Program-made: the position numbers and the translations under genes
Source of the DNA: an uncultured Thermoplasmatales archaeon
Lineage (GTDB): Archaea; Thermoplasmatota; E2; DHVEG-1
Length of the DNA stretch: 64,000 bases
Assembly: GCA_964648565.1 (NCBI GenBank)
Contig: CAZYLG010000001.1
Coordinates: forward strand, 12,315-76,314
Direction: 5' to 3'
Notes under the pieces: generated by a model
Database searches by the model: none
The model's input: the letters and a program-made list of their open reading frames with translations, nothing else
Told to the model about the DNA's origin: nothing
Shown: in pieces, positions 9,933 to 58,136 of the stretch
Position numbering within the stretch: position 1 is the stretch's first letter
How the letters are laid out: each line of letters opens with the position of its first letter

Positions 9933-10469
9933 ATGAAAGACGGAACTATTGTATTACAGAAAGCTAGTGGACATGCTAAAGGTTTTGAAAAATTAGTATT
10001 AGATGCTATTGTATTTTTTACTGAAAGTCCTTATGTTCATGTGTTATTATATATGGATGATGAATTTTGGGAAAGTACTATATTTATGGATGGAAAATGG
10101 CTTTTTTCTGGCGTACGAACAAGAAAAAATGTACCTCATCAGGTTGCTTTAGAACCAATAAAAGACTTAACAGCTGAAGAAAAAAAGAAAATAAAGAAAT
10201 ATATGGAAAAAATGAGGGATTATAATGTACCTTATAATTTTGCTCGTTTAGTTGCTCTCGCTGTTGTATATCCATTAAAAGGTATTTTCAAACTACTTAA
10301 TTGGGTTCCTTTTAAGGCTGAATTTTTTGGTGAAGTATGTTCTACATTTGTAGATGAAGCATATGAACAAGCTGGAAGGGATTTATTACCTAATGAAATG
10401 GAAGAATATACTGCTCCTGGTGATTTTCTAAAATTAGTGGAATTAGGAACATTTAAAAGAATTAAATAA
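9933..10469 (+). CDS. hypothetical protein, 178 aa; possible permuted papain-like (NlpC/P60/YiiX-like) amidase, a tail-associated lysin candidate
   Basis: GGAG precedes the ATG. A conserved His (HVLLYMDD) lies N-terminal to a Cys in GEVCSTFVDEAYEQAG, the arrangement seen in permuted papain-fold amidases. The similarity is weak. Confidence 0.35.
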   Translation: MKDGTIVLQKASGHAKGFEKLVLDAIVFFTESPYVHVLLYMDDEFWESTIFMDGKWLFSGVRTRKNVPHQVALEPIKDLTAEEKKKIKKYMEKMRDYNVPYNFARLVALAVVYPLKGIFKLLNWVPFKAEFFGEVCSTFVDEAYEQAGRDLLPNEMEEYTAPGDFLKLVELGTFKRIK

Positions 10470-10825: not shown

Positions 10826-13102
10826 TTATAATTCTTCGAAATATAAAATTAACCCATGTGTTTTATTTTCTATTACTTCGATACCAGACCATTCATCTTG
10901 AGCTAATACTAAAATTTCATTATATTTTGCATTAATTTGAAATTCTACGTTATCAGCTTCAATCGATGCCAATTCTGAATCAGTAATAACGTCTAGAGCA
11001 TTTTGCCGGTATGCATAATAATCTCTTCCTAGATATGTGATTTCAACTAATCGCACTCCAGGATATGACATCATATACGAACTCAATTCTGTTTTAGAAA
11101 TTGATTGCCCAAATGTTTGTTTATTAATGTTATACTGATTTCTTGTATAATTATAAATATTCTCTTTTACAGTGTTCTTCATATTCTTAAATGTATATAC
11201 TGTAGCTACAACATCATATACTCCATATCGAGCGTCTTTAATATGATTATCAACACACAACATTTTTTGATTCTTAATATATTCTAAATACATATTTTCT
11301 TCAGAAGTATTATTCGGATCCCATCCATCAGCATAGTATGTAATGACAGTTTCATCATTTGTAATATTCGAAGTAGATGTAAGAATAATTTTATTAAATT
11401 CCCAATTAATTGTATAATCACTACCTTTTGTATATTTAGTTTGCCCTGTTTTATCATATATTTCAATTGGAAAATTTGGGTATAAACTGTTTAATGAAGT
11501 GTCTAATGTAATCGCATAATCATCAACTGATGAATCATATGCGAATGTGTGAACAACATTTTGTTTATGTTCTTCCCATGTATCATCAAATACATATAAT
11601 ACCCGTAATATTGTTGGTTCTGTTTCAGATGCTGGTGATGGAATTGTACCACCATCAACTGATTGTATTCTTGAAAATGTAGATTCAGATTCATTAATTG
11701 TATAATCTGTATCTTGTATATATGAATCCATGGCTAACCAATCTGTACTTCCAGTATCATAATGAACAACATACATAGTATTACTTTTATTCATTCTATA
11801 TTTTTTTAAATAAATAGTTTGTTTAGATGGATATAATTCTATATCTTCATAATCAACAACATAATGCGGATTATATGTTTTTGATAATCTAAACAAATCA
11901 TTAAATTCTACCGGACTAGTTTCTTCATACCCTTCTCTTAACGGACAAATATAAATCCATGTATCAAGAGGCGGTAAAAAATAACCATATTCTTGAAATA
12001 TAGCTTCTGGCTCATTGTCTTTACTTACAATTGTAGCATGTAATATTGTTGGATTATTTTCTAATTTTATAATATAATCTTCATTTGTAACTGTTTTATT
12101 CGCAGTTCGAAGTTCAAGAGGTGAACGAAATTTTGCAGTTTCTAAATCTTCAGTATCAGATCCTCCTGCTGCTGATTTAGTATTAGTGAATACTAATGTA
12201 ATCCGCTCACCAGCGAGAGTATATGTTTTAGTACTGTTAATTGTATTTGCTGGAATATTCGTATTTGTACCACCACCAACTCTATATGTTACTTGTAATC
12301 GTTCTCCTTTTTTTGGAATTTCAACTAAATTTTCATGTCCATATACGATATCAACAGAATTATCATTATTAACTTCAACACGATATGGTATTGTTTTTAA
12401 TGATTCATCAACTTCATTCTGTTGGGCTTCAGGAGAAATAAATGAATCTACTTCAAGGTGTTCTTTTCCAGTAGTTAATGATGTTATTCGTATAGAACTA
12501 TCAATAATTGGATTCTGTGTAAGAGTAAACCGTTCATTATTAATACCATCTGACCATATATCATCTTCAGTGACTGTTACACCCTGATAAAACGGAACAC
12601 CACTAATATTATAAATTTTATTTGTTTCATCACCACTCTCCACATGATAAACAAAACTATAATTTGGTTTACCGTCATCTGCCATTTCTATACACTCAAA
12701 TGTTGTTATAATACCATTTTTATCAGGTACATCTAGAGTTTCTAATGGATTGAGATTAAAAGGCGGAGTCCATTTTGCTAATTTTAAATTAACACTAACT
12801 CTCGCAGCTGATGGTAGTGGTGGTTTATAATTGATTAGTTTTAATATATTAATTACACTTTCTCTTTTAGTAGCTGTGGAAATAAACATTTCTCTAGCAT
12901 ACCAATCAGTTTTTGCGGCTACTTTTTCTGCGATGTAAGCACTTAACTCCAACAACATCCTTCCAGCATTCGTTTCAAGAAAATCATTCCAATTTTCTAA
13001 ATATTCTGGGTGTTCGGTAATTGAATTTTCTACATCTGTTATAATTGTATTAAAATCTAGTTCTGTATAACTAAATTTAGGTAGCTTTACTAAATTATCC
13101 AT
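10826..13102 (-). CDS. baseplate wedge protein, T4 gp6 / Baseplate_J-like, 758 aa
   Basis: The N-terminal region (NWNDFLETNAGRMLLELSAYIAEK...FISTATKRESV...YKPPLPSAA) follows the pattern of the T4 gp6 N-terminus (W..EFLD..GSRLNVLCDLLAY...ESF..A..R.SV..GY.P.S..A). It lies in the same orientation as the gp25 homologue, separated from it only by the 533-aa endonuclease-like gene. Confidence 0.65.
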   Translation of the reverse strand: MDNLVKLPKFSYTELDFNTIITDVENSITEHPEYLENWNDFLETNAGRMLLELSAYIAEKVAAKTDWYAREMFISTATKRESVINILKLINYKPPLPSAARVSVNLKLAKWTPPFNLNPLETLDVPDKNGIITTFECIEMADDGKPNYSFVYHVESGDETNKIYNISGVPFYQGVTVTEDDIWSDGINNERFTLTQNPIIDSSIRITSLTTGKEHLEVDSFISPEAQQNEVDESLKTIPYRVEVNNDNSVDIVYGHENLVEIPKKGERLQVTYRVGGGTNTNIPANTINSTKTYTLAGERITLVFTNTKSAAGGSDTEDLETAKFRSPLELRTANKTVTNEDYIIKLENNPTILHATIVSKDNEPEAIFQEYGYFLPPLDTWIYICPLREGYEETSPVEFNDLFRLSKTYNPHYVVDYEDIELYPSKQTIYLKKYRMNKSNTMYVVHYDTGSTDWLAMDSYIQDTDYTINESESTFSRIQSVDGGTIPSPASETEPTILRVLYVFDDTWEEHKQNVVHTFAYDSSVDDYAITLDTSLNSLYPNFPIEIYDKTGQTKYTKGSDYTINWEFNKIILTSTSNITNDETVITYYADGWDPNNTSEENMYLEYIKNQKMLCVDNHIKDARYGVYDVVATVYTFKNMKNTVKENIYNYTRNQYNINKQTFGQSISKTELSSYMMSYPGVRLVEITYLGRDYYAYRQNALDVITDSELASIEADNVEFQINAKYNEILVLAQDEWSGIEVIENKTHGLILYFEEL

Positions 13103-14696
13103 TATTGTTTTCCTTTATAAATTTTATATTACCACAATCATATATTCTATACCATCCAACTTCATCCATCATTTGTTTCTCAGTTTTTTCATCAGAATAA
13201 TTATCAAAATTTTTAAGTCTTTGTTTTCTAAAATTATATCTATGGTAAAGTTTCTTTCCATTCCAATAAAAATAGTTTGGGGGTGTATGAGAATCCAATT
13301 CAAAACCCAACTGTTTGTATAAATTACCTTGACTCCACCTTCTATCAGCATAACTATAAATTTCGTTCCATTCCCAATTACGTTCAAAATGTTTAAGCAT
13401 TTTAGAAGCCAAACCTGGGGTATATGTATCTGCGGTAGTAGCAAATCTGCTCAATTCCCATACTTCATTTTTTTTCTTTTGGTTCATAAAAATTCTAGGC
13501 TTAGAGAAAGTCATAACGCCAATAAGTTTATTATCATAGAAAGCCCCTAATTTTATTCTACTTTTATCTTCTCCTTGTATGTGATATTTATTAAGAAAAC
13601 CATTTTTTATTTTTGAATCAATTTCTTTGACTATAGTTTGTCTTGCTCCAATTCTCTGAGAATTGAGACCTAAAATATTCTTTAATCTATTTTTTACAAT
13701 ATGAAACTTATCATTTATTTCATTTTCAAAAATATGAATAAGTTTTATACCTTTGTTATTACATTCCTCTGTTTTTTCTAAATGATAGTTTTTATCTTTA
13801 TATATATCAGAGTGCCAATAAAGACCATCTATTTCTATAGCTAAATTATGATCTGGAAGATAAATGTCTAATTCTTTAGGTGAAATTATTTTTCTATCAT
13901 TTTCTTTAAAAATAACACTATTTTCATTTAAAAATTCTTTAATTAATTTTTCTGTTTTAAACTTTTCACTTTTATTACAATTAGAACAAAATAATCTTTT
14001 ACCTCTTTCTAAATTTGAATAAAATACTTTCTTACATTTTTCACATTTCCATTTATATTCTTTTTTTATATTTAAATATTCATTTTCATCAAATAGAGGT
14101 ATAATATGTAAACCTAATAAATTATTGTAATAATTTGTTTTTTTAATCTTTACATTATTAGATACAACTTTTTTTTGATTCCATGGAGATTTCATTCCAT
14201 ATTTTTTTAAATTAGTTTCTTGTCTTTTAATAGTGGTTTCTTTTAATTTTGATATGTTATTTACTCCATATTTTTTAATCATACCACTTTCTCTTTTATT
14301 TTTATCTCTAAGAATATAATCAACTCCGTATTTTTTTAAATTTGTAGCTTTCGTTTTATTTTTTACATCTTTTCTTTGAGCAATATTTTCGACACCATAC
14401 TTTTGCAAATTTATTTTCTTCATTTTATCTTGAAATTCTGGATCACTTGTTTGACACCTAGCTGAGCAATATTTTCTATATCCTCTTGTAAAACCTACAA
14501 ATGAAACTTTTTTACCACAAACACATTTAGGTTTTTCTGTAATATTATTTAAAAAACAATACAAATTTTCACTTCTATTATTTGATATAAACAATTTATA
14601 ATTTTCTTCAAAAAAATCATTTGCCCTTCTAATAGTACCATTATTAGGACTATCAGTTAAAATATTTTTTAATTCAGCTTTAATTTCACTTATCAT
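13095..14696 (-). CDS. multi-domain endonuclease-like protein, 533 aa. Two zinc-ribbon motifs, an array of four (N/I)LKKYGV repeats, a Vsr/DUF559-like PD-(D/E)XK nuclease core (AIEIDGLYWHS) and a C-terminal domain of unknown function. Likely a free-standing homing endonuclease.
   Basis: Zinc ribbons CVCGKK..YCSARC and CEKCKK..FCSNCN. The KYG(V/M) motif repeats four times about 22 aa apart. IEIDG..H resembles the DUF559/Vsr endonuclease motif. The SD is weak. The gene is inserted between the gp25 and gp6 homologues. Confidence 0.55.
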   Translation of the reverse strand: MISEIKAELKNILTDSPNNGTIRRANDFFEENYKLFISNNRSENLYCFLNNITEKPKCVCGKKVSFVGFTRGYRKYCSARCQTSDPEFQDKMKKINLQKYGVENIAQRKDVKNKTKATNLKKYGVDYILRDKNKRESGMIKKYGVNNISKLKETTIKRQETNLKKYGMKSPWNQKKVVSNNVKIKKTNYYNNLLGLHIIPLFDENEYLNIKKEYKWKCEKCKKVFYSNLERGKRLFCSNCNKSEKFKTEKLIKEFLNENSVIFKENDRKIISPKELDIYLPDHNLAIEIDGLYWHSDIYKDKNYHLEKTEECNNKGIKLIHIFENEINDKFHIVKNRLKNILGLNSQRIGARQTIVKEIDSKIKNGFLNKYHIQGEDKSRIKLGAFYDNKLIGVMTFSKPRIFMNQKKKNEVWELSRFATTADTYTPGLASKMLKHFERNWEWNEIYSYADRRWSQGNLYKQLGFELDSHTPPNYFYWNGKKLYHRYNFRKQRLKNFDNYSDEKTEKQMMDEVGWYRIYDCGNIKFIKENNNG

Positions 14697-14702
14697 AATA
14701 TA

Positions 14703-15065
14703 CTATTCTTGTTTTAATACATTAAATTCTAAAAATCTTTCATCATCAGGTGTTTCTTCTTTTAATTTAAATCCTATAACAACTTTTACTTTATTTTCAT
14801 CAGCTAAATTTTCTATATTTAAATCTAATATATCGACTCTTGGTTCATATAATTCAATTTGTTCGACAATTCTATCTTTTAAGAATCCTACAGTTTCATC
14901 ATCTCCTGGCTCAAATAACATAGAATTAATACTAACTCCAAAATAAGGATTCTTCAATCGCTCATTTTCATTCGTATTAAATAAGCGGCTTATTGATTCA
15001 GAAATTAAATCATGATCTTCTTTTATAATAAAAAAATCATGTCCGTACATTGCTATACCGCGCAT
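14703..15065 (-). CDS. baseplate wedge subunit gp25-like (GPW/gp25 lysozyme-like family), 120 aa
   Basis: NPYFGVSINSMLFEPGDDETVGFLKDRIVEQIELYEPRVDILDLNI aligns with T4 gp25 SRPFDPEFGCDLSDQLFENMTPLTADTVERNIESAVRNYEPRIDKLAVNV. GGAGG lies 8 nt upstream of the ATG. Confidence 0.85.
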   Translation of the reverse strand: MRGIAMYGHDFFIIKEDHDLISESISRLFNTNENERLKNPYFGVSINSMLFEPGDDETVGFLKDRIVEQIELYEPRVDILDLNIENLADENKVKVVIGFKLKEETPDDERFLEFNVLKQE

Positions 15066-16981: not shown

Positions 16982-17410
16982 TTGAAATTTAACGAAACAC
17001 TCTCAGAATCGTTTAAAAAATATAACCTACGCTACAAAGGCACACAACCAGATTATAAAATACATGATAAAAATCCTTTTGTGCTTGCTATAGATGATAA
17101 ATACAATCCAGATGACCAAGGTAAATCAATTCTTGGTATTAATCTTAATTATTATACTGGTAATAAAAATAAATTGATTAAAAAGATAAATAAAAATGAT
17201 AATGAAGCTGGATTTAGAGGATTTGAAGGTAAATTAAAGGTTCGTAAATTTATTAATAAAGACATCGAAGAATATGAGGAAACACAGAGAAAAAAACGAT
17301 ACGATAATTTTATTAAAACTTTTCCTCATTTAGAAAAATATATACGACGATATAAATATGATGGTCCTAAAGGAACTGGTATTAAATCTAAGAAAAGAAA
17401 GATATTATGA
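16982..17410 (+). CDS. hypothetical protein, 142 aa, probable TTG start
   Basis: The first in-frame start codon after AAGAGG (16967..16972) is TTG at 16982. The product is lysine-rich. Confidence 0.45.
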   Translation: MKFNETLSESFKKYNLRYKGTQPDYKIHDKNPFVLAIDDKYNPDDQGKSILGINLNYYTGNKNKLIKKINKNDNEAGFRGFEGKLKVRKFINKDIEEYEETQRKKRYDNFIKTFPHLEKYIRRYKYDGPKGTGIKSKKRKIL

Positions 17411-18005: not shown

Positions 18006-21000
18006 ATGTCAATTACTAAAAAATGGTCAACTGGGCCATTAGGAAATGAATATCCAGATCATAGTGAAAGAGGAAACCCTAATACTCGTGGTTTGACTGA
18101 TAATGGTATACCAGGGGTTGAAGGTTATGTTGAAGAAGATCGTGTTGTTGCTTCAGAAGATAATCGACCATTAAAAAATTTAACTCAGAATGATCAAATA
18201 TTAGAAAACAATCTCGTTGATGTAGCATCAGAAGTTGATTATGGAGTATTAAAAGACAAATACGATGAATTTGATTTAGAAATTCAGGAATTAGATTATC
18301 ATCAAGATCCGGAGTCTGATAATCCAGATGACGTTGTTGAAATTACTCCATTACGAATTAAATCTGGTTCCTCATTTATTGATGGACAAGTAACTCGTAC
18401 CGGAAACCAACAGATTATTTATTTCTTACGTGATGACGAGTCATATTTATTTCCAGATTATGATGAACATCAAGGTGAAGTGGTTATCGAGTTGTTTGAT
18501 AAAGATTACTTCGGAGAATACAGACCTGTTTACAATACATTAGCAGAAGAGTTACCTTCGAACTTCACAGATTACGAGATTAAAATAACAAATACTGATT
18601 CTTCTGGATCATTAGAAGATAGAACATCATATTATAAAGTATATCGAGATTGGGAAGATATTGTTCCATATCCACCAGAAGAAGAATCACAATCACAGGT
18701 TCTCGATTTTGAATATGATGCGAATTATGGACAGGATTCAGAAGGTGTATGGCTCAATCCAGAGAATGATGTAATTAATATAAAAGTAAGTGACGTTGAA
18801 GTTAAAAAAAATATTCAAGTATTAGATAAACATCTTCGTCATAACGATTTTAAGTTAAATCCTTCTACTGGTAATTATGAACAAATTCTTATCACTGATG
18901 GTATTTTCTTTGACAACATTCGATGGGATACTTCAGGTGAAGTTGTTGATATACAAGATTTAGTAGTAGATAAAGATGATAATATATTTTTTATTTATGA
19001 TCCTTATAAATTAAATTTAGGTGAAATTGATACACTTTTATTATATAAATTATCTGCTGAATCAGAGCAAATAGATAATATAGAAATTACGAATATTCTT
19101 CCTACAGAAAAACCGATGCGATTAAAATTAATTGATGGTTATTTATTTGTTTTAGGTGAAGGTGCTTTAATCAAATTCTTAGATATTTATGTAAGTTCTA
19201 CTGTTAATGAATTTATTACACCACTTACTGGAGATACAACTCAAACGTTTAAAGATGTTGTAATATGGGATGATACATTGTGGATAGCATCGAATAACAC
19301 ACTATATTATACATCATGGGAAGATTTTAAAACTTCTCCACGACATGCCACTTTTACGACAATTGATTTTGCTTCGGAAATTGAATCTCAAGGTCATGCT
19401 GATACATTAGATTATATTCAAAATATATTTACTCTTAAAGGAAATTATGTTGTTGATTCATCATTAATTCATGATATTGACAATATAATAGATAATCCAT
19501 CATTTGAAGAAGGTGGGATTAATAATCCTCCTACTTCATGGGATGTAACATCAAGTTCTGGAAGTGCTACGTTAAAAGTAGCTAGTGGTAATGCACAAAT
19601 TGGTCAAATGCGAGCTGTACTTCAACCAGCTATTAATGATAATGAAATATCAGTATACCAAGATAAAAAATTCGATTTTGAAACAAGTCAAGATTATACA
19701 TTCTCTATTTATTTAAAAGCATCTACGGATACTGATGTAGATATAATACTATCAGAGTTAGATGACTCTGATGCTATAGTTGATTCTACCACTCAATCAG
19801 AAACCGTAACGGGAAATGATACATGGATTCGATTTTCAGTAACTCATACAGTAACTGATTCAACGAGTGTAAAATTACGAGTAGAAGTGAAGAAAACAGA
19901 TGTTAACGTTCTTCAATTTGACGGTGGGCAATTAGAACTTGGGGCGTCTGTCTCACAATTTGTTCATGGGTATAATTATCTGTTTATTACATTTAGAAAA
20001 AAAGATGATACAACAAATCCACCATTCGCTATTATTGATGAACGAAAAAAATATGATATCCAGTATACTCCTAATTTATATGGGAAAATTCAATCTATTA
20101 ATGATATATTAGATAGAAATCATAATGAAATTTATTTTATTGATGATAGCCATATTTATTCTATGCAACTATTAAATGATGTCGATCATTATGATAGAAT
20201 TAATATAAGTAATCTTTCATCACAATTATTTGGAGATGATTTCAGAGAGAGAGTCAAACAATTATATTCCATCGAAGAATTAAACAGTAGAATTTATATT
20301 GGTGGCACAATATTAAACAAAAATATATCATTTACTATTGATGATGGTGAGACACATACTGTAGAATTATTACATGCAAATGAAGTAACTGGTGGTGGAA
20401 GTTATTTAGATTTTCTTACAATTATTGGCGATTATAATTTTATTCAGGCAAGTGAAAATTCACCAGCAAGAGTAGAGTTTTCAAGAACAGAAGAATTGTA
20501 TGAATCACAAAATCCTACTCCGACAGAAGGATTTTATAGTGCTGAACAAATATATGCATTTGGTATACGAATTGATGACATTGAATATTTAATAAAAGTT
20601 GATTCAGCTCCCCAAGAATTTAATAGTCCATGGTCAATAGAGGACGTATACAATAAAATAGTAACACATACGACATCAGAAGGTTATGATGTATTTAGTT
20701 GGCATTTTGATAATTCTACATTGATTGTTGATGGTTTATATAGTATTGGTATGAATAAACCCACACGATATCTTCGTGGTAACATTAAAAAGATTTTCAA
20801 ACAAGAAAATGCTGAAGAAAAGGATGTTAATGAAAGACATTTATATATAGCTCGTGAAAATACAATTATTCGTTCGAAATATGATCCTAATATTAAAAAA
20901 GTAGGTGATAGTTATCCATCCGAACCAGTAGTACGAGGGTATGTAGATTCGATGGATGATTTACCATCTGATCCAGATAATAATGATGTATATTATGTTG

Positions 21001-24000
21001 AAGGATGGGGATACTTTAAATGGATAGAAAGTACAAGTGAATGGATTGATACTCACTATTTTCATAGATGGGATATATCAGATTCTAATTATGAATTAAG
21101 AGAATTCACAAAAATAGCAAATGAAACTATTACATTTAATGATACTACCCATAATAGATTATTTGTTGATATTCCAGTATCATCAGGATGTGAATTATTA
21201 ACAGGTAGTGTACGATTAAAAATAAATGATGAAACTGAATATGGATTTATAGAAGGCAAGGATTACTTTATAAACTATGAAAACAAAACAGTTATCCGAA
21301 ATGACGGTAAGAATTTACTATCTGATTCTAAATTAGAACATATCGATGACCCTTCAACACAATGGAATATATGGTCGACCCATGATGATCCAGAATTTAA
21401 TTCACTAACAAATGAATTTAATGAAATTTTTGCTGAATTCTATACGGTTAATCAAATAACAGAGTATGTCAACTTCCATCAAGTAGTCGTACCAAATACT
21501 CTTTCTGTCGGCGAAACATTCACGTTTTCAATATATGTAAAATCTAATATAGAATTTACTAGTGGTAATATCAGGTTAGCTGAACGTATTAATTCCGGAA
21601 CAAATAAAAATGATTTATCATTATTTTATGATGATTTTATTGATGGATCGACACAGACATTTTTCATTTCAAATTCAGAATTAGATATTGGTAAATGGCA
21701 TAGAATAGAGGTTACCCATACTATTCAAAATACAGAATCAGATTGTTTACGAGTAGAATTTTATTCTGCACTTAATCATCAAATATTTGTAAAAAATGCT
21801 CAATTAGAAGAAAATCCGTTTGCTACTCCGTATGTGCCTGAGGAAGGGTTTTCAAGAATTGATCCGCAAGATACTGTATATTGTGATTTTATAGAATATA
21901 AAGTATTAACAGAAGGATCAGATTATACATTTAATACTGATGATAATCGAAGAATTTGTTTATTGAATCCAATTGGAAGTAATTCAGAATTATATTTTGA
22001 TTATGAATATGAAAGAATATTTAACCCGTATAAATATGGTAATTCTCTTCCAACATTTGATGTACGATATGATAACCGTGATGATTATTTTCTTTATGAG
22101 AATAGTGGTCGTATTTGGGCGATTAACCAAATATTAGCACTTTTATCATTAGATGAAAGCTTGAATGTTTCATATAAATATCATTATCCTCGAATCGATA
22201 AAATAAAAATTAGAAATATACCTGATAAATATGGAAATTTCTTATATATTGTAAAAGGTGATTTTGATGTTGAAAATCCGTATAGTCCTGGTGATCTAGG
22301 AAATCAACGACAGGTATACGTAGATGGAGTGTATGATGTATCTATTGATGATGTTAACAATGAAGATAATGATGTATTATATGAATTAAATGTTGTGGAT
22401 TTAAATTTTAATAAAAATGATATTTATGATAGAAGAATTTTTATTGATTCTGATACGAGTCCATATTTCAGTATTTCTTTACAGAATGAAACATTAGCAT
22501 ATTTCCCATTCGTTAAAGATTTTATTTCTACAAATGGTATTCATCCATTAAATCAAATTGATGCTTCTCGTATCGTTTCAATTGTTAAAAATTATAGTAT
22601 TCAACAGAACGAAGAAGTTGGAGCATGGGGAACTGATTATCAAATGTCGTTGCGATATAAAGATGGATACCCCGAAAATATTGGTCCTTCTCTTTCTACA
22701 TTTGTTGATAATGATAATGGTAAAGATGATGATCCAGCATATGATGGTACTTCTCAACTCCTTGCATTTAAAACAATCGGAAGAGCTGTAGAAGCTATTC
22801 GAGATGAAGGAGCTCAACCAAATATAGTTATTATTTCTACTTCTACTATTACTGAAGATGTGGAAATTGATTTAACTCAAGAAATTTTAATTAAAGCTAA
22901 AACGTATACCCGTTGGAGAGGCAATTTACAAAATAGAAGTAAAATCACGTTTCAGGGTATCATATTTGAAAATTTCAACTTTTATGCGATAGCAGATTTA
23001 GATTTTTATCATTGTAATTTAGAAGATTCTTCAATTAATAATTATTATCCTCTTAATATTTCGTTATATAATTGTAAAATTTTAGATGCTACAAATACAT
23101 TTTTACGAATAAGTTCACAATTATTTCCAACTCCATTTGCACACCCATATATGAGAAATATTACAAGAGATGATGGTGTCCCTGGAAGTCCAGAATCTGT
23201 AGCGACATCTGACGGTGAGGCAATACATCCAGAGGATTTACAATATAATTTTGAATTGTTTGGTGATCCTATTGGAAATTATACAATGTATCGATGTCTC
23301 ATGAATGGTTTATCAGATGATTTAATCCATTATGATTTAACAAATACACAAGATTGGATTAGCAATTTTGATGTAGAAAAATGTACTATTGTTAACAGTA
23401 AACTTCTCTTTAAAACATCAAAACCAGGTCAATCAATTCTTTTCAATGAATGTATTGTATGGAATAACGGAGAAATACGAAGTGGAGAGAAAAAATATTT
23501 TGATTCACGATCTAACATTGAATTTTTAAATTCATTTATTGATTTTTCAGTCGATCCAGAATTAGTACCAGCTAGTGAACTGAATTTTAATCCAATTGGA
23601 GGTATTTTTGGAAGAGAAACTTGTCAATTTTCAGGACCCAATAAAGATCCTGGATTTATTAGTACTGATGAAGAAACAGAAGATTATCATCTTCGTTCAA
23701 TAGCAAAAGGATTTTTAACAGATTCTGTATGTATTGGAAAAGCATCAGACGGGAAAGATATTGGATGCTATGATGAAATTCGGGAACGAGTTGATTTAGA
23801 CGTACCTAAAAAATTTAAATCTAATTTTGCTTATATAGCAGAATCAATTCATTATCCAATAGTTGTTAATTCAGAAAAAATTACATTCACTGTTGAATTT
23901 AAGCCTACTGAAACATACAACAATACAGGAATTTTATTTGATACTCGATCGGATACTGATGATGATGATTATATTGTATTATTATACAACAATAATACTG

Positions 24001-27000
24001 GAGAGAAACGTGCTAATCTTACTCCAGATTCACAAGCTGAACCGTCTGACCCATATACATTTAAGATTATTGTTGCCAATAAATATAAAAAATATGCAGT
24101 AATATCACCATTACAAATTCTATCAGATGCTGATTATCAACAATGGCATAAGATTTCATTCACAGTAAACTATGAAAAAGCATTTAATCAGAAACCAGCA
24201 TTTGATGAAAAAGACAAATATCAGAATATTATTACATTCTATCACAATAATCAATTAGCAATAGAATCATTTATTGTTAATGATTTAAATAGAGATGAGA
24301 AAGGTGAATTAATTCTTAATGAGTTAGCACAAGGAAATGAAATTGTAGAAGGATTTAAAGAAGAAGAAACAACAAATGCTTGGAATTATAATGATATCTC
24401 ATATTATATTACTATTGGTGGTGCATTTGATCAGACTCAATTATTAAGCGGTTATTATTCAGAATTACGAATAGATAATAAATTCACCAATAGAAAAGAA
24501 TTAACATATTGGAATGACAAAGAACTTCCTTTTATTGACCCCACAAATTATATCGACCAATCTACGTTTGTTAAAACTATAGATAGTAGAATTTTAAATG
24601 AATTCTGGTCATTAAAAAATGAATATGGTATAGGAGCGAAAGGGAATACGTTTGAAGATAAAACAAGAAAAAGATTTACTTATTTAAATAGTGAATTGGT
24701 ATGGGCACTAATGGAACCAACAATGAACTATTTAGAAAATTCAGATTTTACTGAAAACGAATTTGCTCATATTATTACAGATGTCCCACCACGTTTAAAT
24801 TCAAATATTAGTAAATATATGTTTATTTCTACTACTGGTTCACGAATTGCTACTGATAATGCTCAATCTACAATTAATGATGATGCATATGGTATATCAG
24901 TTCGTTTTTTCACGGATGAAGATGACTACGCAAATGGAATGAATTTTTATTCAGCAAAAGAATTGGTAGATCATATTAATGATGAGATATTCAGAACTGA
25001 TGGTGGAACGCCAGTAAATGGGAATACATATATTAGATGTCGATTACGAAAAGACGGAAAAATTGAATTTTATACAAAAGATTGGCAAGCTACATCAATT
25101 AAAATACAATTTGAAAATTCTGGTGATCATAGAGAAATAGGATTCAATAATGATAATCCTGATTTAATTGATTGGGAATATATGGGAGAATTACAAGGTG
25201 ATGAAGCAAATGTATATTTTATCGATACATTGCGTTCTGATTCATATGTACCAGACGGATCTCCTGCATATCCATTTAAATCATTTTTCGCAGCGAAATC
25301 ACAATTAGAAGTAGGATACGTATTATATATCGCAAATGGAGAAACAAATCCAGGATCTACATATGCAGATTTTGGAATTACTACAGGTGGTGGTGGCGGA
25401 ACAGTATTATTTACTGGACGTCAAATAACGAAAACAAAAGATACAAATTTTGAGATTTTAGGTTTAGATGGTGATACGGTAGGAAGACATGAAGTATGGA
25501 ATGAGTTCGATCCATTATATACTCGTTTGTCAAATAGAAGTTGGGGTATATTAAAAAATAGGGCATTGGGTGAAGATGAAACGATAACAATTTATTTTGA
25601 AAAAATTACACAAACAGGCGGCGCTCCTATTGATTTTGTACCGGGAGAATATTATACATTTTCTATGTATGTATATAGTGAAGATGAAGTTAGTAGTGAA
25701 AAAATTAAATTTATTAAAAGAGAAAATGGTACTGAAACAGAATTCTTCTTTGATGATATAGAAAAAATATATGGTAGTTGGATGAAGTTGACAAAAACAA
25801 CATCTTTCTCATCAGATCTTCAAGCAGATATCGGTATTATAGTAAAAAGAGATATTGAATTCTATATTGATGCTGTACAGTTAGAACGATCTAAATTCTC
25901 AACTCCATATATTAAAGAAAGAAATGATAACCATGGCGTGATTGAAATTAGTAGAGCATTGGTACAAAAACAACGTGGTATCATATTTTTTAGATTTAAA
26001 CCAATTATAAATTTTGATACTGAAGATGAAATTGTACTTTTAGAAGCAGTAAAATATCAAATTGATGAAGCGGGTGATTTAGTATATAAAGAAGGAAGTG
26101 ATGTACCACTTGTAGATTGGAATCGCGGATTTAGAATATCATATTATTATGATCCAACAATTGAAAAGGGTATCATAACATTTAAAACTGATAGTCTAGT
26201 AATTAATGATACCTCGACACATAAATTTTATATCGTAGAATCATTATGGGATTACTGGCATTCAGTCGCCATCTATTATGATTATCCTACAAATAGATTT
26301 ATCTATTATTTCGATCATTTTAAGTATGATACCGAATCTGGTGCGGCAGTTCAACCATTCGCATCCAATTTTTATATTGGTCGTGATGTGCCTAAAGACT
26401 ATACATCAAGTGGATCATTTGAATGGACTGATTCTATTGGATATGACGAAACAAAAAATCGTCCTTCAGCAAACATATTGGTGAAAGATGTTATTATTAC
26501 AAATTATCCAATATCTGACAGAGAATTATCTAATTGGAAAAATATACAAGAATTTTATAAAGAGAGTTCTTATATCCATTTATTAGATTACTATCAAGAT
26601 CAAGTATTACAAAGAATCTCTAACTTAGAATTAGTATCAGAAAATACAATTGAAATTAGTAATAAAATTGACTCATTTGAACAACAAATAAATCAGTTCG
26701 AAGAAAACCTAAATAATAACGTTAATACTCAATTACCACAAATAGAAAGTGATATTGCCACAAATGCAGCAAATATAACTACAAATGCAGATGACATCGA
26801 TGTATTAGAGCTTAATGTATCAAATTTAACAGCAGAACAATCTAATCAAGATGGTAGAATTACACAAAACGAGAGTGATATTGATTACAATTATAATTTG
26901 ATTCTTGCAGAAACACAAGCGCGAATCGATGCTGACGACATTATAGTAAATAGATTAATATCAAATAACATTGGTGATGGAGCTTCAACTGTTGGAATAG

Positions 27001-28853
27001 CAGATACAAATAATCGTTTTTCAGCTACAAATGTAGAAAATGCATTGCAAGAATTGGCTGGAGTGGATAGAGATGCTACCCATACGGTAAAGGGTAATTA
27101 TGATCTTATTCAAACTAATATCACTACCCTCACAGATTTACAAGAAGATGTACAGTACGCTCTTGATGCGAATACTGGTTCTTGGACTCAAGTGAAAGCA
27201 ACAAATAATGGTTGGAATATCGCAGATCTACGAACCGATGTAACAACAAATGCTGGAGATATAACCACTAATGCGGGAGATATCGCTCAAGAAATTATTG
27301 ATAGAGCTAACGCAGATCAACAGATTAGAGATGATTTGATTTCTACTGATAATGGTAAAGGAGCTTCATTAATCGGAGTAGAAGATTCAAACGGTGTGTT
27401 AACTGAAATTAATCTCGAAGCTGCTTTATATGAAATAATTGGATCAGGAAGAACAAATCAAACAATTAAAGATAATTGGGATCTTATTCAAACCAATATA
27501 AGTGATATTACAGATATTCAAAATGATGTTTCGAATATTAATACCGATTTATTAGAAATCGGTAAAATGAAAGACGGTACTGATGGATCTACTTGGGATT
27601 CATCAATGAATCTTAAGGATCATGAGGATCGATTAGATACCGCCGAAACAAATATTAGTACAAATGCTTCGGATATCGATACGAATGAAACAGATATCGC
27701 GAATACTCTTTCTTATGCTCAAGGGGTAAGAACAGACCTAACAACTGAAATTAGTAATAGACAGCAGGGCGATCAAGATATACGAAATGATTTAGCATCT
27801 ACTTCTGCTACGAAAGGTGCTTCAATGGTTGGAGTGAAAGATGAAAATGGATATTTTACCGAGAATACAGTAGAGGAAGTGTTATCTGAATTAGATGAAA
27901 AAATACAAACATTAGAAACAAGTCTTAACTGGAAAGAACCTGTTGATACTGTCGGTGACTTACCGACAACTGGTAATGATGATGGGGATGCTCGAACTGT
28001 ATTAGATGATGGTGATGGATTTGCAGCTCAATATGTATGGAATGGAACCTCATGGGTTAAAATTGCAGATATTAATTGGGGAACTGCATCGGATATTTCA
28101 TATACTAATACGACAACAGGAATGGATGCTACAAATGTACAATCTGCTATTGATGAAGTATATGAACGTTCACAAGATCCTTCTAAAGCAGAAGATGAAG
28201 TTGAAACTACTGATTATTCATCTAGTGGTGGTCGGTATTTTTATGATATTGATCATGAATTAAATACTCAAGACGTAACAGTTATACCGATTAGTAAAAC
28301 CGATGGTAGAGTTGTAGGAGTTGATGAAATAGAAGCTGTTGATTTTAACACAACACGAGTATGGGTAACTGATAACTCCGAGGGATTAAATTTTATAGTA
28401 TTCGGGGCTGTTCATAATTATTCAAAAACTGTAGGATCGTGGACACCTTCTAGTGGCACATATTATCATACAGTTAATCATAATCTTAATTCTCAACAAT
28501 TATTATTATCGGTATTCGACTTAAGTACTGGACATAGAGTAAATCTTGATGAAATACTATTTACTGATGATAATACGATTACACTTTGGACATCAGACAA
28601 CTTATTACAAGTCAATGTCTTTGTATTAAAACGAACATCAGATACAAAAGTAAAAGATATCGATAATTGGAATCCGGTGGCTGGCATGTATGAGGCATCC
28701 ATTAAAATGCCAGAAGATTATGATGCTGTTTATCAATTTATTGATCCTTCTACTGGAAGAATTGTTGGAGTTGATGATGTATGGTTTGATGGTGATTATC
28801 TTAAAGTACGAAGTTCAGATGATTCTCGTTTACGAATGGTTATCTTAAGATAA
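18006..28853 (+). CDS. giant mosaic tail-fibre/spike protein, 3615 aa. It has CBM-like (NPSFE...) jelly-roll domains, two DUF1565-type right-handed beta-helix segments, a coiled-coil/heptad region with a threefold GAS(L/M/T)(I/V)GV repeat, one WKEPV..DLP..GD.R.VL repeat, and three C-terminal ~60-aa repeats.
   Basis: GAGGAAACAGAG then ATG. CBM-like domains sit near nt 19500, 21400 and 25550. Beta-helix starts AFKTIGRAVEAI (~22760) and YPFKSFFAAKSQ (~25270). The heptad region spans ~26620..27920. The C-terminal repeats span ~28230..28850. Confidence 0.85.
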   Translation: MSITKKWSTGPLGNEYPDHSERGNPNTRGLTDNGIPGVEGYVEEDRVVASEDNRPLKNLTQNDQILENNLVDVASEVDYGVLKDKYDEFDLEIQELDYHQDPESDNPDDVVEITPLRIKSGSSFIDGQVTRTGNQQIIYFLRDDESYLFPDYDEHQGEVVIELFDKDYFGEYRPVYNTLAEELPSNFTDYEIKITNTDSSGSLEDRTSYYKVYRDWEDIVPYPPEEESQSQVLDFEYDANYGQDSEGVWLNPENDVINIKVSDVEVKKNIQVLDKHLRHNDFKLNPSTGNYEQILITDGIFFDNIRWDTSGEVVDIQDLVVDKDDNIFFIYDPYKLNLGEIDTLLLYKLSAESEQIDNIEITNILPTEKPMRLKLIDGYLFVLGEGALIKFLDIYVSSTVNEFITPLTGDTTQTFKDVVIWDDTLWIASNNTLYYTSWEDFKTSPRHATFTTIDFASEIESQGHADTLDYIQNIFTLKGNYVVDSSLIHDIDNIIDNPSFEEGGINNPPTSWDVTSSSGSATLKVASGNAQIGQMRAVLQPAINDNEISVYQDKKFDFETSQDYTFSIYLKASTDTDVDIILSELDDSDAIVDSTTQSETVTGNDTWIRFSVTHTVTDSTSVKLRVEVKKTDVNVLQFDGGQLELGASVSQFVHGYNYLFITFRKKDDTTNPPFAIIDERKKYDIQYTPNLYGKIQSINDILDRNHNEIYFIDDSHIYSMQLLNDVDHYDRINISNLSSQLFGDDFRERVKQLYSIEELNSRIYIGGTILNKNISFTIDDGETHTVELLHANEVTGGGSYLDFLTIIGDYNFIQASENSPARVEFSRTEELYESQNPTPTEGFYSAEQIYAFGIRIDDIEYLIKVDSAPQEFNSPWSIEDVYNKIVTHTTSEGYDVFSWHFDNSTLIVDGLYSIGMNKPTRYLRGNIKKIFKQENAEEKDVNERHLYIARENTIIRSKYDPNIKKVGDSYPSEPVVRGYVDSMDDLPSDPDNNDVYYVEGWGYFKWIESTSEWIDTHYFHRWDISDSNYELREFTKIANETITFNDTTHNRLFVDIPVSSGCELLTGSVRLKINDETEYGFIEGKDYFINYENKTVIRNDGKNLLSDSKLEHIDDPSTQWNIWSTHDDPEFNSLTNEFNEIFAEFYTVNQITEYVNFHQVVVPNTLSVGETFTFSIYVKSNIEFTSGNIRLAERINSGTNKNDLSLFYDDFIDGSTQTFFISNSELDIGKWHRIEVTHTIQNTESDCLRVEFYSALNHQIFVKNAQLEENPFATPYVPEEGFSRIDPQDTVYCDFIEYKVLTEGSDYTFNTDDNRRICLLNPIGSNSELYFDYEYERIFNPYKYGNSLPTFDVRYDNRDDYFLYENSGRIWAINQILALLSLDESLNVSYKYHYPRIDKIKIRNIPDKYGNFLYIVKGDFDVENPYSPGDLGNQRQVYVDGVYDVSIDDVNNEDNDVLYELNVVDLNFNKNDIYDRRIFIDSDTSPYFSISLQNETLAYFPFVKDFISTNGIHPLNQIDASRIVSIVKNYSIQQNEEVGAWGTDYQMSLRYKDGYPENIGPSLSTFVDNDNGKDDDPAYDGTSQLLAFKTIGRAVEAIRDEGAQPNIVIISTSTITEDVEIDLTQEILIKAKTYTRWRGNLQNRSKITFQGIIFENFNFYAIADLDFYHCNLEDSSINNYYPLNISLYNCKILDATNTFLRISSQLFPTPFAHPYMRNITRDDGVPGSPESVATSDGEAIHPEDLQYNFELFGDPIGNYTMYRCLMNGLSDDLIHYDLTNTQDWISNFDVEKCTIVNSKLLFKTSKPGQSILFNECIVWNNGEIRSGEKKYFDSRSNIEFLNSFIDFSVDPELVPASELNFNPIGGIFGRETCQFSGPNKDPGFISTDEETEDYHLRSIAKGFLTDSVCIGKASDGKDIGCYDEIRERVDLDVPKKFKSNFAYIAESIHYPIVVNSEKITFTVEFKPTETYNNTGILFDTRSDTDDDDYIVLLYNNNTGEKRANLTPDSQAEPSDPYTFKIIVANKYKKYAVISPLQILSDADYQQWHKISFTVNYEKAFNQKPAFDEKDKYQNIITFYHNNQLAIESFIVNDLNRDEKGELILNELAQGNEIVEGFKEEETTNAWNYNDISYYITIGGAFDQTQLLSGYYSELRIDNKFTNRKELTYWNDKELPFIDPTNYIDQSTFVKTIDSRILNEFWSLKNEYGIGAKGNTFEDKTRKRFTYLNSELVWALMEPTMNYLENSDFTENEFAHIITDVPPRLNSNISKYMFISTTGSRIATDNAQSTINDDAYGISVRFFTDEDDYANGMNFYSAKELVDHINDEIFRTDGGTPVNGNTYIRCRLRKDGKIEFYTKDWQATSIKIQFENSGDHREIGFNNDNPDLIDWEYMGELQGDEANVYFIDTLRSDSYVPDGSPAYPFKSFFAAKSQLEVGYVLYIANGETNPGSTYADFGITTGGGGGTVLFTGRQITKTKDTNFEILGLDGDTVGRHEVWNEFDPLYTRLSNRSWGILKNRALGEDETITIYFEKITQTGGAPIDFVPGEYYTFSMYVYSEDEVSSEKIKFIKRENGTETEFFFDDIEKIYGSWMKLTKTTSFSSDLQADIGIIVKRDIEFYIDAVQLERSKFSTPYIKERNDNHGVIEISRALVQKQRGIIFFRFKPIINFDTEDEIVLLEAVKYQIDEAGDLVYKEGSDVPLVDWNRGFRISYYYDPTIEKGIITFKTDSLVINDTSTHKFYIVESLWDYWHSVAIYYDYPTNRFIYYFDHFKYDTESGAAVQPFASNFYIGRDVPKDYTSSGSFEWTDSIGYDETKNRPSANILVKDVIITNYPISDRELSNWKNIQEFYKESSYIHLLDYYQDQVLQRISNLELVSENTIEISNKIDSFEQQINQFEENLNNNVNTQLPQIESDIATNAANITTNADDIDVLELNVSNLTAEQSNQDGRITQNESDIDYNYNLILAETQARIDADDIIVNRLISNNIGDGASTVGIADTNNRFSATNVENALQELAGVDRDATHTVKGNYDLIQTNITTLTDLQEDVQYALDANTGSWTQVKATNNGWNIADLRTDVTTNAGDITTNAGDIAQEIIDRANADQQIRDDLISTDNGKGASLIGVEDSNGVLTEINLEAALYEIIGSGRTNQTIKDNWDLIQTNISDITDIQNDVSNINTDLLEIGKMKDGTDGSTWDSSMNLKDHEDRLDTAETNISTNASDIDTNETDIANTLSYAQGVRTDLTTEISNRQQGDQDIRNDLASTSATKGASMVGVKDENGYFTENTVEEVLSELDEKIQTLETSLNWKEPVDTVGDLPTTGNDDGDARTVLDDGDGFAAQYVWNGTSWVKIADINWGTASDISYTNTTTGMDATNVQSAIDEVYERSQDPSKAEDEVETTDYSSSGGRYFYDIDHELNTQDVTVIPISKTDGRVVGVDEIEAVDFNTTRVWVTDNSEGLNFIVFGAVHNYSKTVGSWTPSSGTYYHTVNHNLNSQQLLLSVFDLSTGHRVNLDEILFTDDNTITLWTSDNLLQVNVFVLKRTSDTKVKDIDNWNPVAGMYEASIKMPEDYDAVYQFIDPSTGRIVGVDDVWFDGDYLKVRSSDDSRLRMVILR

Positions 28854-29494: not shown

Positions 29495-29845
29495 ATGAAT
29501 TGGAAAGATAAATACGATGATGTAAGTGATTTTAAAGAAGGTAGAGCTAAAGTTGAACTAAATAATAAATATGGTCATGTAGATAAAAATGGTAATGTAA
29601 CTACCCCTATTATCTATGATATAACAGGATATTTTCAGGGAGGTAGGGCCGGTGTTGAGCTAAATGACAAACAAGGGCACGTTGATAAAAATGGTAATGT
29701 AACTACTCCTATTATTTATGATAGTGTAGGAAATTTTAGAAAAGGCGAAGCTTTGGTTAGATTAAATCGTAAAGAAGGTTATGTAAATAAAAATGGCAAA
29801 GTAATAGAAGGTCACTATGATTTAATTATAGGAGTTTTTAAATGA
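29495..29845 (+). CDS. KWG/WG-repeat protein, 3 repeats, 116 aa
   Basis: Repeats of GRAKVELNNKYGHVDKNGNVTTPIIYD.. match WG_beta_rep-like repeats with W replaced by Y. AGAGGAAG precedes the ATG. Confidence 0.7.
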   Translation: MNWKDKYDDVSDFKEGRAKVELNNKYGHVDKNGNVTTPIIYDITGYFQGGRAGVELNDKQGHVDKNGNVTTPIIYDSVGNFRKGEALVRLNRKEGYVNKNGKVIEGHYDLIIGVFK

Positions 29846-30396
29846 ATTGGAAAAATAAATATGATTATGTAAGTGATTTCCAAGAAGGTAGAGCTAAGGT
29901 TCGATTAAATGGTAAACAAGGTCATGTAGACAAAGAAGGTAACATTACTACTCCTATTATTTATAATAATGTAGGATATTTCCAAGAAGGTAGAGCTAAG
30001 GTTCGATTAAATGGTAAATACGGTCATGTTGATAAAGATGGTAACATTACTACTCCTGTTATTTATAATAATATAAGTCATTTCCAAGAAGGTAGAGCTG
30101 AAGTTGTAAAAAATGGTAAATACGGTCATGTAGACAAAAATGGTAATGTGACTACTCCTATTATTTATGATCTTATAGGAAATTTTCAAGGAGGTAGAGC
30201 TATAGTTGAATTAAATAATAAACAAGGTCATGTAGACAAAAACGGTAACATTACTACTCCTATTATTTATGATAATGTAGGATATTTCCAAGAAGGTAGA
30301 GCTAGAGTTGGATTAAATGGTAAATACGGTCATGTAGACAAAAATGGTAAAGTAATAGAAGGACAGTATGATTTAATTATAGGAGTTTTTAAATGA
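29842..30396 (+). CDS. KWG/WG-repeat protein, 5 repeats, 184 aa
   Basis: ATGA overlap with the upstream paralogue. The 39-aa repeats are near-identical at the DNA level. Confidence 0.7.
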   Translation: MNWKNKYDYVSDFQEGRAKVRLNGKQGHVDKEGNITTPIIYNNVGYFQEGRAKVRLNGKYGHVDKDGNITTPVIYNNISHFQEGRAEVVKNGKYGHVDKNGNVTTPIIYDLIGNFQGGRAIVELNNKQGHVDKNGNITTPIIYDNVGYFQEGRARVGLNGKYGHVDKNGKVIEGQYDLIIGVFK

Positions 30397-30641
30397 ATTG
30401 GAAAGATAAATATGATTATGTAAGTGATTTCCAAGAAGGTAGAGCTATAGTTGTAAAAAATGGTAAATATGGTCATGTAGACAAAAACGGTAATGTAACT
30501 ACTCCTATTATTTATGATCTTATAGATCATTTTAAAGAAGGTAGAGCTGAAGTTGGATTAGATGGTAAACAAGGACATGTAGACAAAAATGGTAAAGTAA
30601 TAGAAGGTCACTATGATTTAATTATAGGAGCGTTTAAATAA
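30393..30641 (+). CDS. KWG/WG-repeat protein, 2 repeats, 82 aa
   Basis: ATGA overlap. Same N-terminal cap (MNWKDKYDYVSDFQEGRA) and C-terminal cap (GKVIEGHYDLIIG.FK) as the other two. Confidence 0.7.
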   Translation: MNWKDKYDYVSDFQEGRAIVVKNGKYGHVDKNGNVTTPIIYDLIDHFKEGRAEVGLDGKQGHVDKNGKVIEGHYDLIIGAFK

Positions 30642-30708
30642 ATTATAAAAAACCCATAAAATAGTAAAGATAAATTAATAAGATGGACTGCACACAGTTC
30701 TTCTTAAT

Positions 30709-30762
30709 GGATTGTACTATATAGGTACAAAAACTATATATTGTACTTAATAGGTACAATCC
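30709..30762. promoter_or_regulatory. two operator-like palindromic sites TTGTAC-N7-GTACAA, nested in an outer inverted repeat GGATTGTAC...GTACAATCC, upstream of the TTG-start 1843-aa gene
   Basis: Site A 30709..30730 (ggattgtactatataggtacaa). Site B 30740..30762 (attgtacttaataggtacaatcc). Centres are about 29 bp apart and about 30 nt upstream of the start codon. Confidence 0.6.
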
Positions 30763-58115: not shown

Positions 58116-58136
58116 CTTTTATGACAACTGCTAAAA

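Follow-up and report, generated by a model that had tools for sequence, protein, structure and literature searches.

What is the protein of 3,615 amino acids (aa) that is encoded by a single gene at 18006..28853 of this DNA, and what would it do for the genome that carries it? The DNA is a stretch of 64,000 nucleotides (nt) of contig CAZYLG010000001.1, referred to below as the 64-kb window. The original prediction, made from the letters of the window, described the gene product as a mosaic spike with several kinds of domain. Spike is a loose label, and the protein looks like a long fibre instead. We consider it probable, with appreciable room for doubt, that the protein is a giant, probably trimeric, baseplate-associated fibre of an uncultivated megaphage lineage and binds host surface glycans multivalently. 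The evidence comes from the domains in the chain, the pattern of conservation along it, and the genes around it.

The gene is real and conserved. Its frame is intact from an ATG start, and the open reading frames (ORFs) that overlap it on either strand are all short (85 aa or less). A search of 5.8 billion clustered proteins gave 24 full-length relatives of 3,140-4,784 aa, with 35-58% identity. Their alignment runs essentially from residue 1 to the C-terminus, which also supports the ATG start. The family is rare, and it carries no annotation. When a profile of one segment, the beta-helix described below, was run against 1.84 billion proteins, the family itself amounted to only 17 representative clusters at E < 1e-30, and it occurs on one IMG/VR contig and on one contig of a GTDB metagenome-assembled genome (MAG). 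The contigs carrying relatives are 137-732 kb long, and a near-identical genome of ~480 kb with a family member recurs in many samples. In 50,697 GenBank phage records, DNA and protein searches found nothing that matches the gene or aa 1-2400; for the last 715 aa there was a single match of 65 aa, in Moorella phage MTATph1. Whole-protein scans with Pfam and PHROG were nearly empty, and family matches came after the chain was split or with NCBIfam. Against PDB sequences, both the protein and a 16-sequence profile found marginal matches of coiled-coil type only. Promoter and terminator scans around the gene did no better than shuffles. In the cluster of one relative (P0013), where the gene otherwise encodes 3,441 aa, a contig of 479,101 bp has separate products of 2,281 and 1,161 aa in the gene calls, with the break just before the point of the variable linker described below; either a sequencing error or a true split of the gene may lie behind this.

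The gene and the parts into which its product can be divided are as follows, in order along the plus strand. AF2 stands for AlphaFold2 and CBM for carbohydrate-binding module.

18006..28853 (+): whole gene, candidate giant mosaic fibre protein, 3,615 aa (ORF list, translation, 24 homologues)
18006..19493 (+): N-terminal region, aa 1-496, no fold assigned, presumed virion-attachment end (conservation)
19494..19955 (+): CBM-like jelly roll 1, aa 497-650 (CBM_4_9 and NF048003 above cut-off)
19956..21323 (+): aa 651-1106, without a recognised fold
21324..21860 (+): CBM-like jelly roll 2, aa 1107-1285 (NF048003 above cut-off; hhalign to copy 1)
21861..22709 (+): aa 1286-1568, strongly conserved core, no fold assigned (family alignment; low AF2 confidence)
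22710..23819 (+): predicted right-handed beta-helix, aa 1569-1938; DUF1565-like cap AFKTIGRAVEAI, end motif DPGF..DYHL (AF2, Foldseek, profile search)
23820..24500 (+): predicted LamG/ConA-like beta-sandwich 1, aa 1939-2165 (AF2, Foldseek)
24501..25160 (+): aa 2166-2385, mixed alpha/beta (AF2 partly confident)
25161..25448 (+): variable linker with cap-like motif YPFKSFFAAK, aa 2386-2481 (family alignment, AF2, profile)
25449..25901 (+): CBM-like jelly roll 3, aa 2482-2632 (AF2 beta-sandwich; hhalign to copies 1 and 2)
25923..26555 (+): predicted LamG/ConA-like beta-sandwich 2, aa 2640-2850 (AF2, Foldseek, BFVD)
26556..27917 (+): coiled-coil stalk with heptads, aa 2851-3304, broken by three copies of a small unit (AF2, periodicity, repeats)
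27918..28199 (+): WKEPV module, aa 3305-3398 (jackhmmer, DNA repeat D3, AF2)
28200..28850 (+): three tandem beta-sandwich repeats of ~70 aa each, aa 3399-3615, C-terminal tip (BLAST, hidden Markov model, hhalign, AF2)

The protein contains three homologous jelly rolls of the type found in CBM_4_9 and in the head spike fibre of gene transfer agents (GTA). The copies match one another by fragment BLAST (E 3e-7 and 2e-6) and by profile-profile comparison, with hhalign probabilities of 99.7% for copies 1 and 2, 96.4% for copies 1 and 3, and 92.8% for copies 2 and 3. In a scan of the separate segments, copy 1 scores 34.9 bits against Pfam CBM_4_9 (PF02018), above the cut-off of 25.9, and copy 2 scores 18.5 bits, under it. 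With NCBIfam NF048003 (GTA_spike_fiber, 'phage head spike fiber domain'; cut-off 36) copies 1 and 2 both pass, at 43.1 and 47.4 bits, and copy 3 stays under the cut-off at 19.4 bits. At the position of jelly roll 1 the homologues P0002, P0008 and P0019 also match CBM_4_9. Copy 3 is the copy that was modelled, and AF2 gives it a beta-sandwich with a predicted local distance difference test (pLDDT) score of 70-88; the Foldseek list for the model that holds it includes CBM22 4xuo and a laminin LG pair. The three CBM-like units of the original prediction are thus borne out by curated cut-offs, BLAST, hhalign, and AF2 with Foldseek.

To these the models add two LamG/ConA-like folds, which the earlier description lacked. 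The first is predicted with a pLDDT of ~80, and its Foldseek matches are the neurexin LNS domain, CBM40, pentraxin and the botulinum neurotoxin (BoNT) Hc, at E 1e-4 to 1e-5; the probability is 1.00, and the template-modelling (TM) score on the target is 0.5-0.63 to neurexin LNS, CBM40 and pentraxin. The second, with a pLDDT of ~80-89, matches together with jelly roll 3 the laminin LG4-5 pair (E 3e-6) and neurexin L2-L3, and the BFVD matches of the C-terminal model are annotated as ConA-like lectin/glucanase. By sequence no homology between the two is detectable, and segments aa 1935-2165 and 2480-2850 gave no Laminin_G family match in the Pfam scan. In the whole-protein Pfam scan Laminin_G_2 appears at just 12.9 bits, and it is located in jelly roll 2, not in the LamG domains.

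Between jelly roll 2 and the first LamG-like domain lies a segment, aa 1569-1938, whose predicted fold is a right-handed beta-helix. In an AF2 model of aa 1290-2489, built as a monomer with the family alignment, residues ~1569-1889 form the ladder of short strands that characterises parallel beta-helices, with a pLDDT of 85-93. The best PDB match of this model by Foldseek is the CBA120 TSP2 tailspike (6w4q/5w6p; E 7e-6, probability 0.99). Homology points the same way, transitively. An exhaustive profile search with 18 beta-helix segments of the family found 320 proteins at E <= 1e-3, ~300 of them distant, which align chiefly at the N-terminal cap (profile positions ~4-60) and at the C-terminal DPGF..DYHL motif (~300-360). 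Six of the ten distant relatives scanned have a match to Pfam Beta_helix, DUF1565, Pectinesterase or a Pel9A-like family at E <= 0.001, and five of these six exceed the Pfam cut-off for at least one such family. Direct scans were empty: neither Beta_helix (PF13229) nor DUF1565 (PF07602) was matched in the whole-protein Pfam scan, and segment aa 1560-1940, scanned alone up to E 0.5, matched no Pfam or NCBIfam family. The cap motif AFKTIGRAVEAI stands at aa 1587 (nt 22764). The DUF1565-like start that the original prediction placed there is borne out, since the profile relatives carry beta-helix families; AF2 and Foldseek agree with it. Both folds on which that prediction turned, the beta-helix and the CBM fold, were therefore found, through curated cut-offs, AF2 with Foldseek, and profile homology.

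The original prediction had spoken of beta-helices in the plural, with another start at YPFKSFFAAK; only one helix domain is supported. The motif is present, at aa 2422 (nt 25269), with ~60 residues between it and jelly roll 3. No helix domain stands behind it: over the linker aa 2386-2481 AF2 has a pLDDT < 50 and no helix coils, and the profile of the first helix does not match the YPFKSFFAAK stretch. Compared with P0005-P0013, this protein and its four closest relatives have ~65 aa more in the linker, and other relatives hold unrelated inserts of 46-943 aa at the same point. A second beta-helix was rejected for these reasons, namely low model confidence, missing coils, the lack of a profile match, and a longer linker that is specific to one clade.

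Is the helix an enzyme? A reading that we find doubtful, although it fares best among the alternatives, is that the protein is primarily a tailspike-type depolymerase, in which the helix would cleave capsule, exopolysaccharide (EPS) or O-antigen and the CBM and LamG domains would feed it substrate. The top structural match, CBA120 TSP2, is enzymatically active, and the distant relatives include pectinesterase, pectate-lyase-like and Beta_helix proteins. Across the family the helix has a mean identity of 47%, with acidic residues that never vary (E1617, D1736, D1846 and D1918) or hardly do (E1738), and with a strongly conserved insert loop of ~50 aa (LFPSPF.HPY...SVATSD.ESI.PG). However, the empty scan of the helix segment leaves it with no curated enzyme family, and many beta-helix domains of fibres are binding-only or structural. 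The position also argues against a depolymerase: the beta-helix of tailspikes is usually C-terminal, whereas here it is mid-chain and makes up ~10% of the chain. We give catalysis by the helix as such a minority chance. The original suggestion of glycan binding or depolymerase activity is thus well founded in its first part, which the CBM and LamG modules and the analogy with the fibre of the Rhodobacter capsulatus GTA (RcGTA) support, and the second part is tentative.

The distal part of the chain is of another kind. After the second LamG-like domain AF2 predicts long helices broken by three short hairpins, and in six of the seven helices the power of the hydrophobic 3.5-residue period is above that of 500 shuffles (fraction <= 0.03). 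Windows of high heptad power are concentrated at aa 2850-3200, and an I/N-rich a/d pattern can be read from the translation in the stretch IESDIATNAANITTNADDIDVLELNVSNL. The unit that interrupts the stalk has the motif GAS.(V/I)G..D.N..F....VE.AL.EL and occurs three times, as seen by fragment BLAST (E 2e-20) and as DNA repeat D10 with a spacing of 378 nt; it also matches phrog_7154 and a Moorella phage protein. The heptad region with a threefold unit had been noticed in the original prediction, and the periodicity against shuffles, the BLAST match and D10 all bear it out. The WKEPV module that follows starts at nt 27930 and is modelled as a small beta domain (pLDDT 75-81). The single copy in this gene is where it had been placed; it is not otherwise specific to the 1692-aa gene, as had been claimed, since jackhmmer finds nine copies in that gene and one near the N-terminus of the 1843-aa gene (independent E-value, iE, 1e-12). 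The tip has three repeats, again as claimed, with a length of ~70 aa and not 60. They match one another by BLAST (E 8e-10) and hhalign (94-99%), and a hidden Markov model built across the family from copies 1 and 2 alone recovers copy 3 (iE 2.6e-5). Their AF2 pLDDT is 80-89, and by sequence they match phrog_21918, a family of unknown function; no named fold is among the Foldseek matches listed. A Pfam TSP_C match on the repeats (E 2e-4, 21.7 bits, under the cut-off of 25.6) was not accepted.

No fold is assigned to ~1,600 residues, or ~45% of the chain (aa 1-496, 651-1106, 1286-1568 and 2166-2385). The N-terminal region has no Pfam, NCBIfam, PHROG or PDB sequence match. The segment aa 651-1106 has no family or PDB sequence match, and hhalign shows no internal homology for it; aa 1286-1568 and 2166-2385 have no Pfam or NCBIfam match. 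In the last of these AF2 is confident over aa ~2255-2380 (pLDDT 70-88). Hidden extra copies of the CBM, LamG or tip repeats were not found in the unassigned regions at an hhalign probability >= 50%. Two of these regions are among the best conserved parts of the protein. The first 125 aa are the most conserved part of the protein (61% mean identity, many invariant residues), and aa 1286-1568 have a mean identity of 53-58% and a dense set of invariant residues. The AF2 monomer has a pLDDT < 50 over aa 1290-1496 in spite of the high conservation there, a combination that would fit an obligate oligomeric fold. LamG1 is also among the most conserved parts, with 56% mean identity, and the jelly rolls are among the least conserved, at 32-34%. 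That the jelly rolls are among the most variable parts and the N-terminus, the core and LamG1 the least variable fits fast-evolving ligand sites on a constrained scaffold.

The unassigned regions, above all the two most conserved stretches aa 1-300 and 1286-1568, might instead hold folds or functions new to phage fibres, with the mid-chain helix catalytic as well; we think this unlikely. If it were true, these stretches could be, for example, a new type of interwoven trimeric shaft or an element of baseplate signalling, and the protein would be a single-chain organelle for binding, cutting and signalling that is specific to megaphages, not a passive fibre.

The placing of the proposed fibre at the baseplate comes from the neighbourhood of the gene, whose features are as follows.

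10826..13102 (-): gp6-like baseplate wedge (PHROG baseplate wedge match)
13095..14696 (-): homing/HNH endonuclease, 533 aa (phrog_3339, E 1e-127)
14703..15065 (-): gp25-like wedge (PHROG baseplate wedge match)
16982..17410 (+): 142-aa ORF, upstream of the giant gene in five of five related loci, 47-65% identity
17666..18004 (+): 112-aa ORF, matches in three of five related loci, 41-65% identity
30793..39828 (+): 1843-aa and 1162-aa fibre-like genes (N-terminal matches downstream of the giant gene in related loci)

The 3,615-aa protein is encoded in a baseplate/tail-fibre module, and the block is syntenic in five related loci (L001-L005). The gp6-like and gp25-like genes lie upstream of it on the opposite strand, with PHROG baseplate wedge E-values of 2e-26 and 3e-20. 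The endonuclease gene between them, whose product also matches DUF7487, Mom and, below threshold, Vsr in Pfam, looks like a mobile insertion, because in L001 the baseplate genes adjoin without it. In this locus, on a 732-kb contig, one strand carries, in this order, gp25, the gp6-like gene, Tail_P2_I, small ORFs and the giant gene. In P2-type modules the tail fibre gene has its position after wedge genes of the gp25/gp6/gpI type. The 142-aa ORF, which has no PHROG family match, and the 112-aa ORF could be fibre assembly factors.

Downstream, every one of the five related loci has a match to the 1162-aa gene, and four (L002-L005) have one to the 1843-aa gene. The 657-aa gene and the N-terminal half of an Mtd-like 1277-aa gene are each matched in two of the five. 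For the 1843-aa and 1162-aa genes the L002 matches end at ~aa 480 and ~aa 610, within the N-terminal third to half, although the sequence continues, which suggests that their C-terminal parts have been exchanged; the flanks of L004 and L005 are too short for the extent of these matches to be judged.

Several other observations were made in the 64-kb window, which has more than one further fibre-like giant. At aa 202-248 the 1843-aa gene weakly matches the beta-helix cap (iE 0.02). Between the giant gene and the 1843-aa gene, 29495..30714 (+) holds five copies of a 300-nt unit that have diverged to 60-80% identity and form a run of small ORFs (116, 184 and 82 aa) that are paralogous to one another; L003 lacks them, and the 1843-aa homologue there stands directly 3' of the giant gene. 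At 763..9930 (+) is a second giant, highly repetitive fibre gene, which contains the DNA repeat families D2 and D4; 12 stretches of its 3,055-aa product match the PHROG tail-fibre family phrog_24210 (E 5e-131). It has an odd neighbour right after it, a 178-aa ORF at 9933..10469 (+) with a weak PHROG match of enoyl-CoA hydratase/crotonase-like type (E 1e-6). The 1277-aa protein, at 43707..47540 (+), has an Mtd second domain (PF21916, E 4e-8), and in L001 the gene that follows the giant gene (20611..22125) carries Mtd_N. Mtd folds are those of the Bordetella phage tropism determinant, which is diversified by a diversity-generating retroelement (DGR). Despite the Mtd-like domains nearby, no template/variable repeat pair of a DGR was seen in the 64-kb window. 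At 56778..59039 (-) are genes for a CCA-adding tRNA nucleotidyltransferase (PolyA_pol and HD) and a DnaJ-type co-chaperone (DnaJ and DnaJ_C); the window has no tRNA genes.

The gene neighbourhood also bears on the possibility that the protein is a fibre or decoration of the capsid, like the head spike fibre of RcGTA, which would give a very large virion, slow to diffuse, a wider capture radius. NF048003 is the only curated family that is passed in two copies, and the RcGTA fibre reportedly binds capsule from its place on the head (PMC10218006). However, the common element is just a jelly-roll module of the broad CBM_4_9 type, the gene stands in the baseplate/fibre block and not beside any identified head gene, and the N-terminus has no Pfam or NCBIfam similarity and showed no head-anchoring signal. 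We regard a head fibre as improbable. Less probable still is a protein outside the virion, either a surface adhesin of a bacterium or archaeon on contigs that were mis-binned, or a protein secreted during infection: two homologues carry host labels in its favour (one '[archaeon]', one in a MAG labelled 'Gammaproteobacteria'; both are too weak for host inference), but all contexts examined are phage-like (gp25, gp6-like, Tail_P2_I, fibre-like genes, Mtd-like proteins), the ~480 kb contigs recur as near-identical genomes, and the window has dense, co-oriented small ORFs with PHROG tail and endonuclease matches.

How would a giant baseplate-associated fibre work? Glycan binding is a well-founded prediction, since CBM cut-offs are passed and a beta-helix is predicted; the two LamG domains and the match to the RcGTA fibre strengthen it. 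The protein, as a virion component and probably a trimer, would hang from the baseplate by its highly conserved N-terminus. Five lectin-type beta-sandwiches (three jelly rolls and two LamG/ConA-like domains) and one central beta-helix would offer many weak sugar-binding sites. A distal coiled-coil stalk of ~450 residues with three small knob units would follow, and the WKEPV module and the three repeats would be the far tip. In a first step, multivalent and reversible binding to host polysaccharide (capsule, EPS or lipopolysaccharide, LPS) would capture and orient the very large virion. In a second step, the neighbouring 1843-aa and 1162-aa fibres may carry more of the host specificity. Such a division of labour, with generic glycan capture left to the 3,615-aa protein, is suggested by the end-to-end conservation of this protein together with the early end of the L002 matches to its neighbours.

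A number of points weigh against this account. Nothing can be transferred to the protein from a characterised phage, because the 50,697 GenBank phage records hold no relative. Its location in the virion, and at the baseplate in particular, is deduced from gene context rather than seen directly, and the one curated family passed by two of its domains, NF048003, takes its name from a fibre of the head and not of the tail. Conservation from end to end, tip included, is unusual for a receptor-binding protein that determines specificity. The unassigned ~1,600 residues could hold an unrecognised function. The AF2 models are of monomers, with a mean pLDDT of only 61 (aa 1290-2489) and 68 (C-terminal model), and the Foldseek TM-scores are low because the queries are multi-domain, the aligned query ranges not being reported.

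If the protein is the glycan-binding fibre that we propose, it would be of use for the study of megaphages. What is known of these phages (480-730 kb) comes almost entirely from metagenomes, and ideas on their hosts and modes of adsorption are mostly guesses. Five lectin-type modules and a beta-helix in a conserved fibre of more than 3,000 aa point to surface polysaccharide as the first receptor. The domains could be expressed for finding hosts, for example as fluorescent CBM or LamG probes on environmental cells, and the gene family, with so few representative clusters, can serve as a marker of the lineage. The value lies in practice more than in concepts, since each recognised module has precedents in phage fibres and spikes.

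The likeness to several known systems concerns one part of the protein. The head spike fibre of RcGTA (rcc01080/GhsB; NF048003) has the domain type of the three jelly rolls. It is beta-rich and lectin-like, and cell binding by it rises with capsule; it is a small protein, held on the head spike base by its first ~10 residues (PMC10218006). Here, unlike in that small fibre, the module is present three times within a 3,615-aa chain that is encoded in a tail/baseplate module, and the likeness is confined to the jelly roll. With CBA120 TSP2 (6w4q, 5w6p) the helix has a sequence identity of ~10%, although it is the best PDB match. Unlike in that tailspike, the predicted helix here is internal, with flanking lectin domains, and has a conserved insert loop of ~50 aa. 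The cap motif of the helix aligns with the DUF1565 start in a distant relative (P0154), and the DPGF..DYHL motif stands after the helix in other distant beta-helix relatives.

The C-terminal model has its own viral counterparts. Among its best structural matches are LamG/ConA-like proteins of uncultured Caudovirales and of T4-like cyanophages (V5USF6 of Synechococcus phage ACG-2014h, Q5GQG3 of S-PM2), and likewise the tail fibres of PBS1 and Trina. The BFVD E-values are 6e-9 to 1e-5, and the likeness is at the level of the fold, with 7-16% identity. The stalk has a weak PDB sequence likeness to reovirus sigma-1 (6gaj, 6gao) and to the P22 tail needle gp26 (4lin, 4zxq), with E-values (0.0045-0.08) that are marginal and typical of coiled-coil composition. 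Unlike the shafts of these proteins, it is broken three times by a small conserved unit, and it is only 12% of the chain.

As a whole, the protein can be compared with P2 gpH and the T4 long tail fibres. It resembles them in gene place, after the gp25-, gp6- and gpI-like wedge genes as seen in L001, in the conserved N-terminus, and in belonging to a fibre block of several genes. It has neither a sequence likeness nor a demonstrated structural one to them, it is conserved to the very C-terminus, and it is far larger than gpH or any single subunit of the T4 long fibre. Every recognised module is thus of a known kind, be it the CBM_4_9/GTA jelly roll, the tailspike-type helix, the LamG fold, or the shaft of sigma-1/gp26 type. 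The whole is no new kind of system; what is particular to the megaphage lineage is the combination of modules, the size, and the dark but conserved regions between them.

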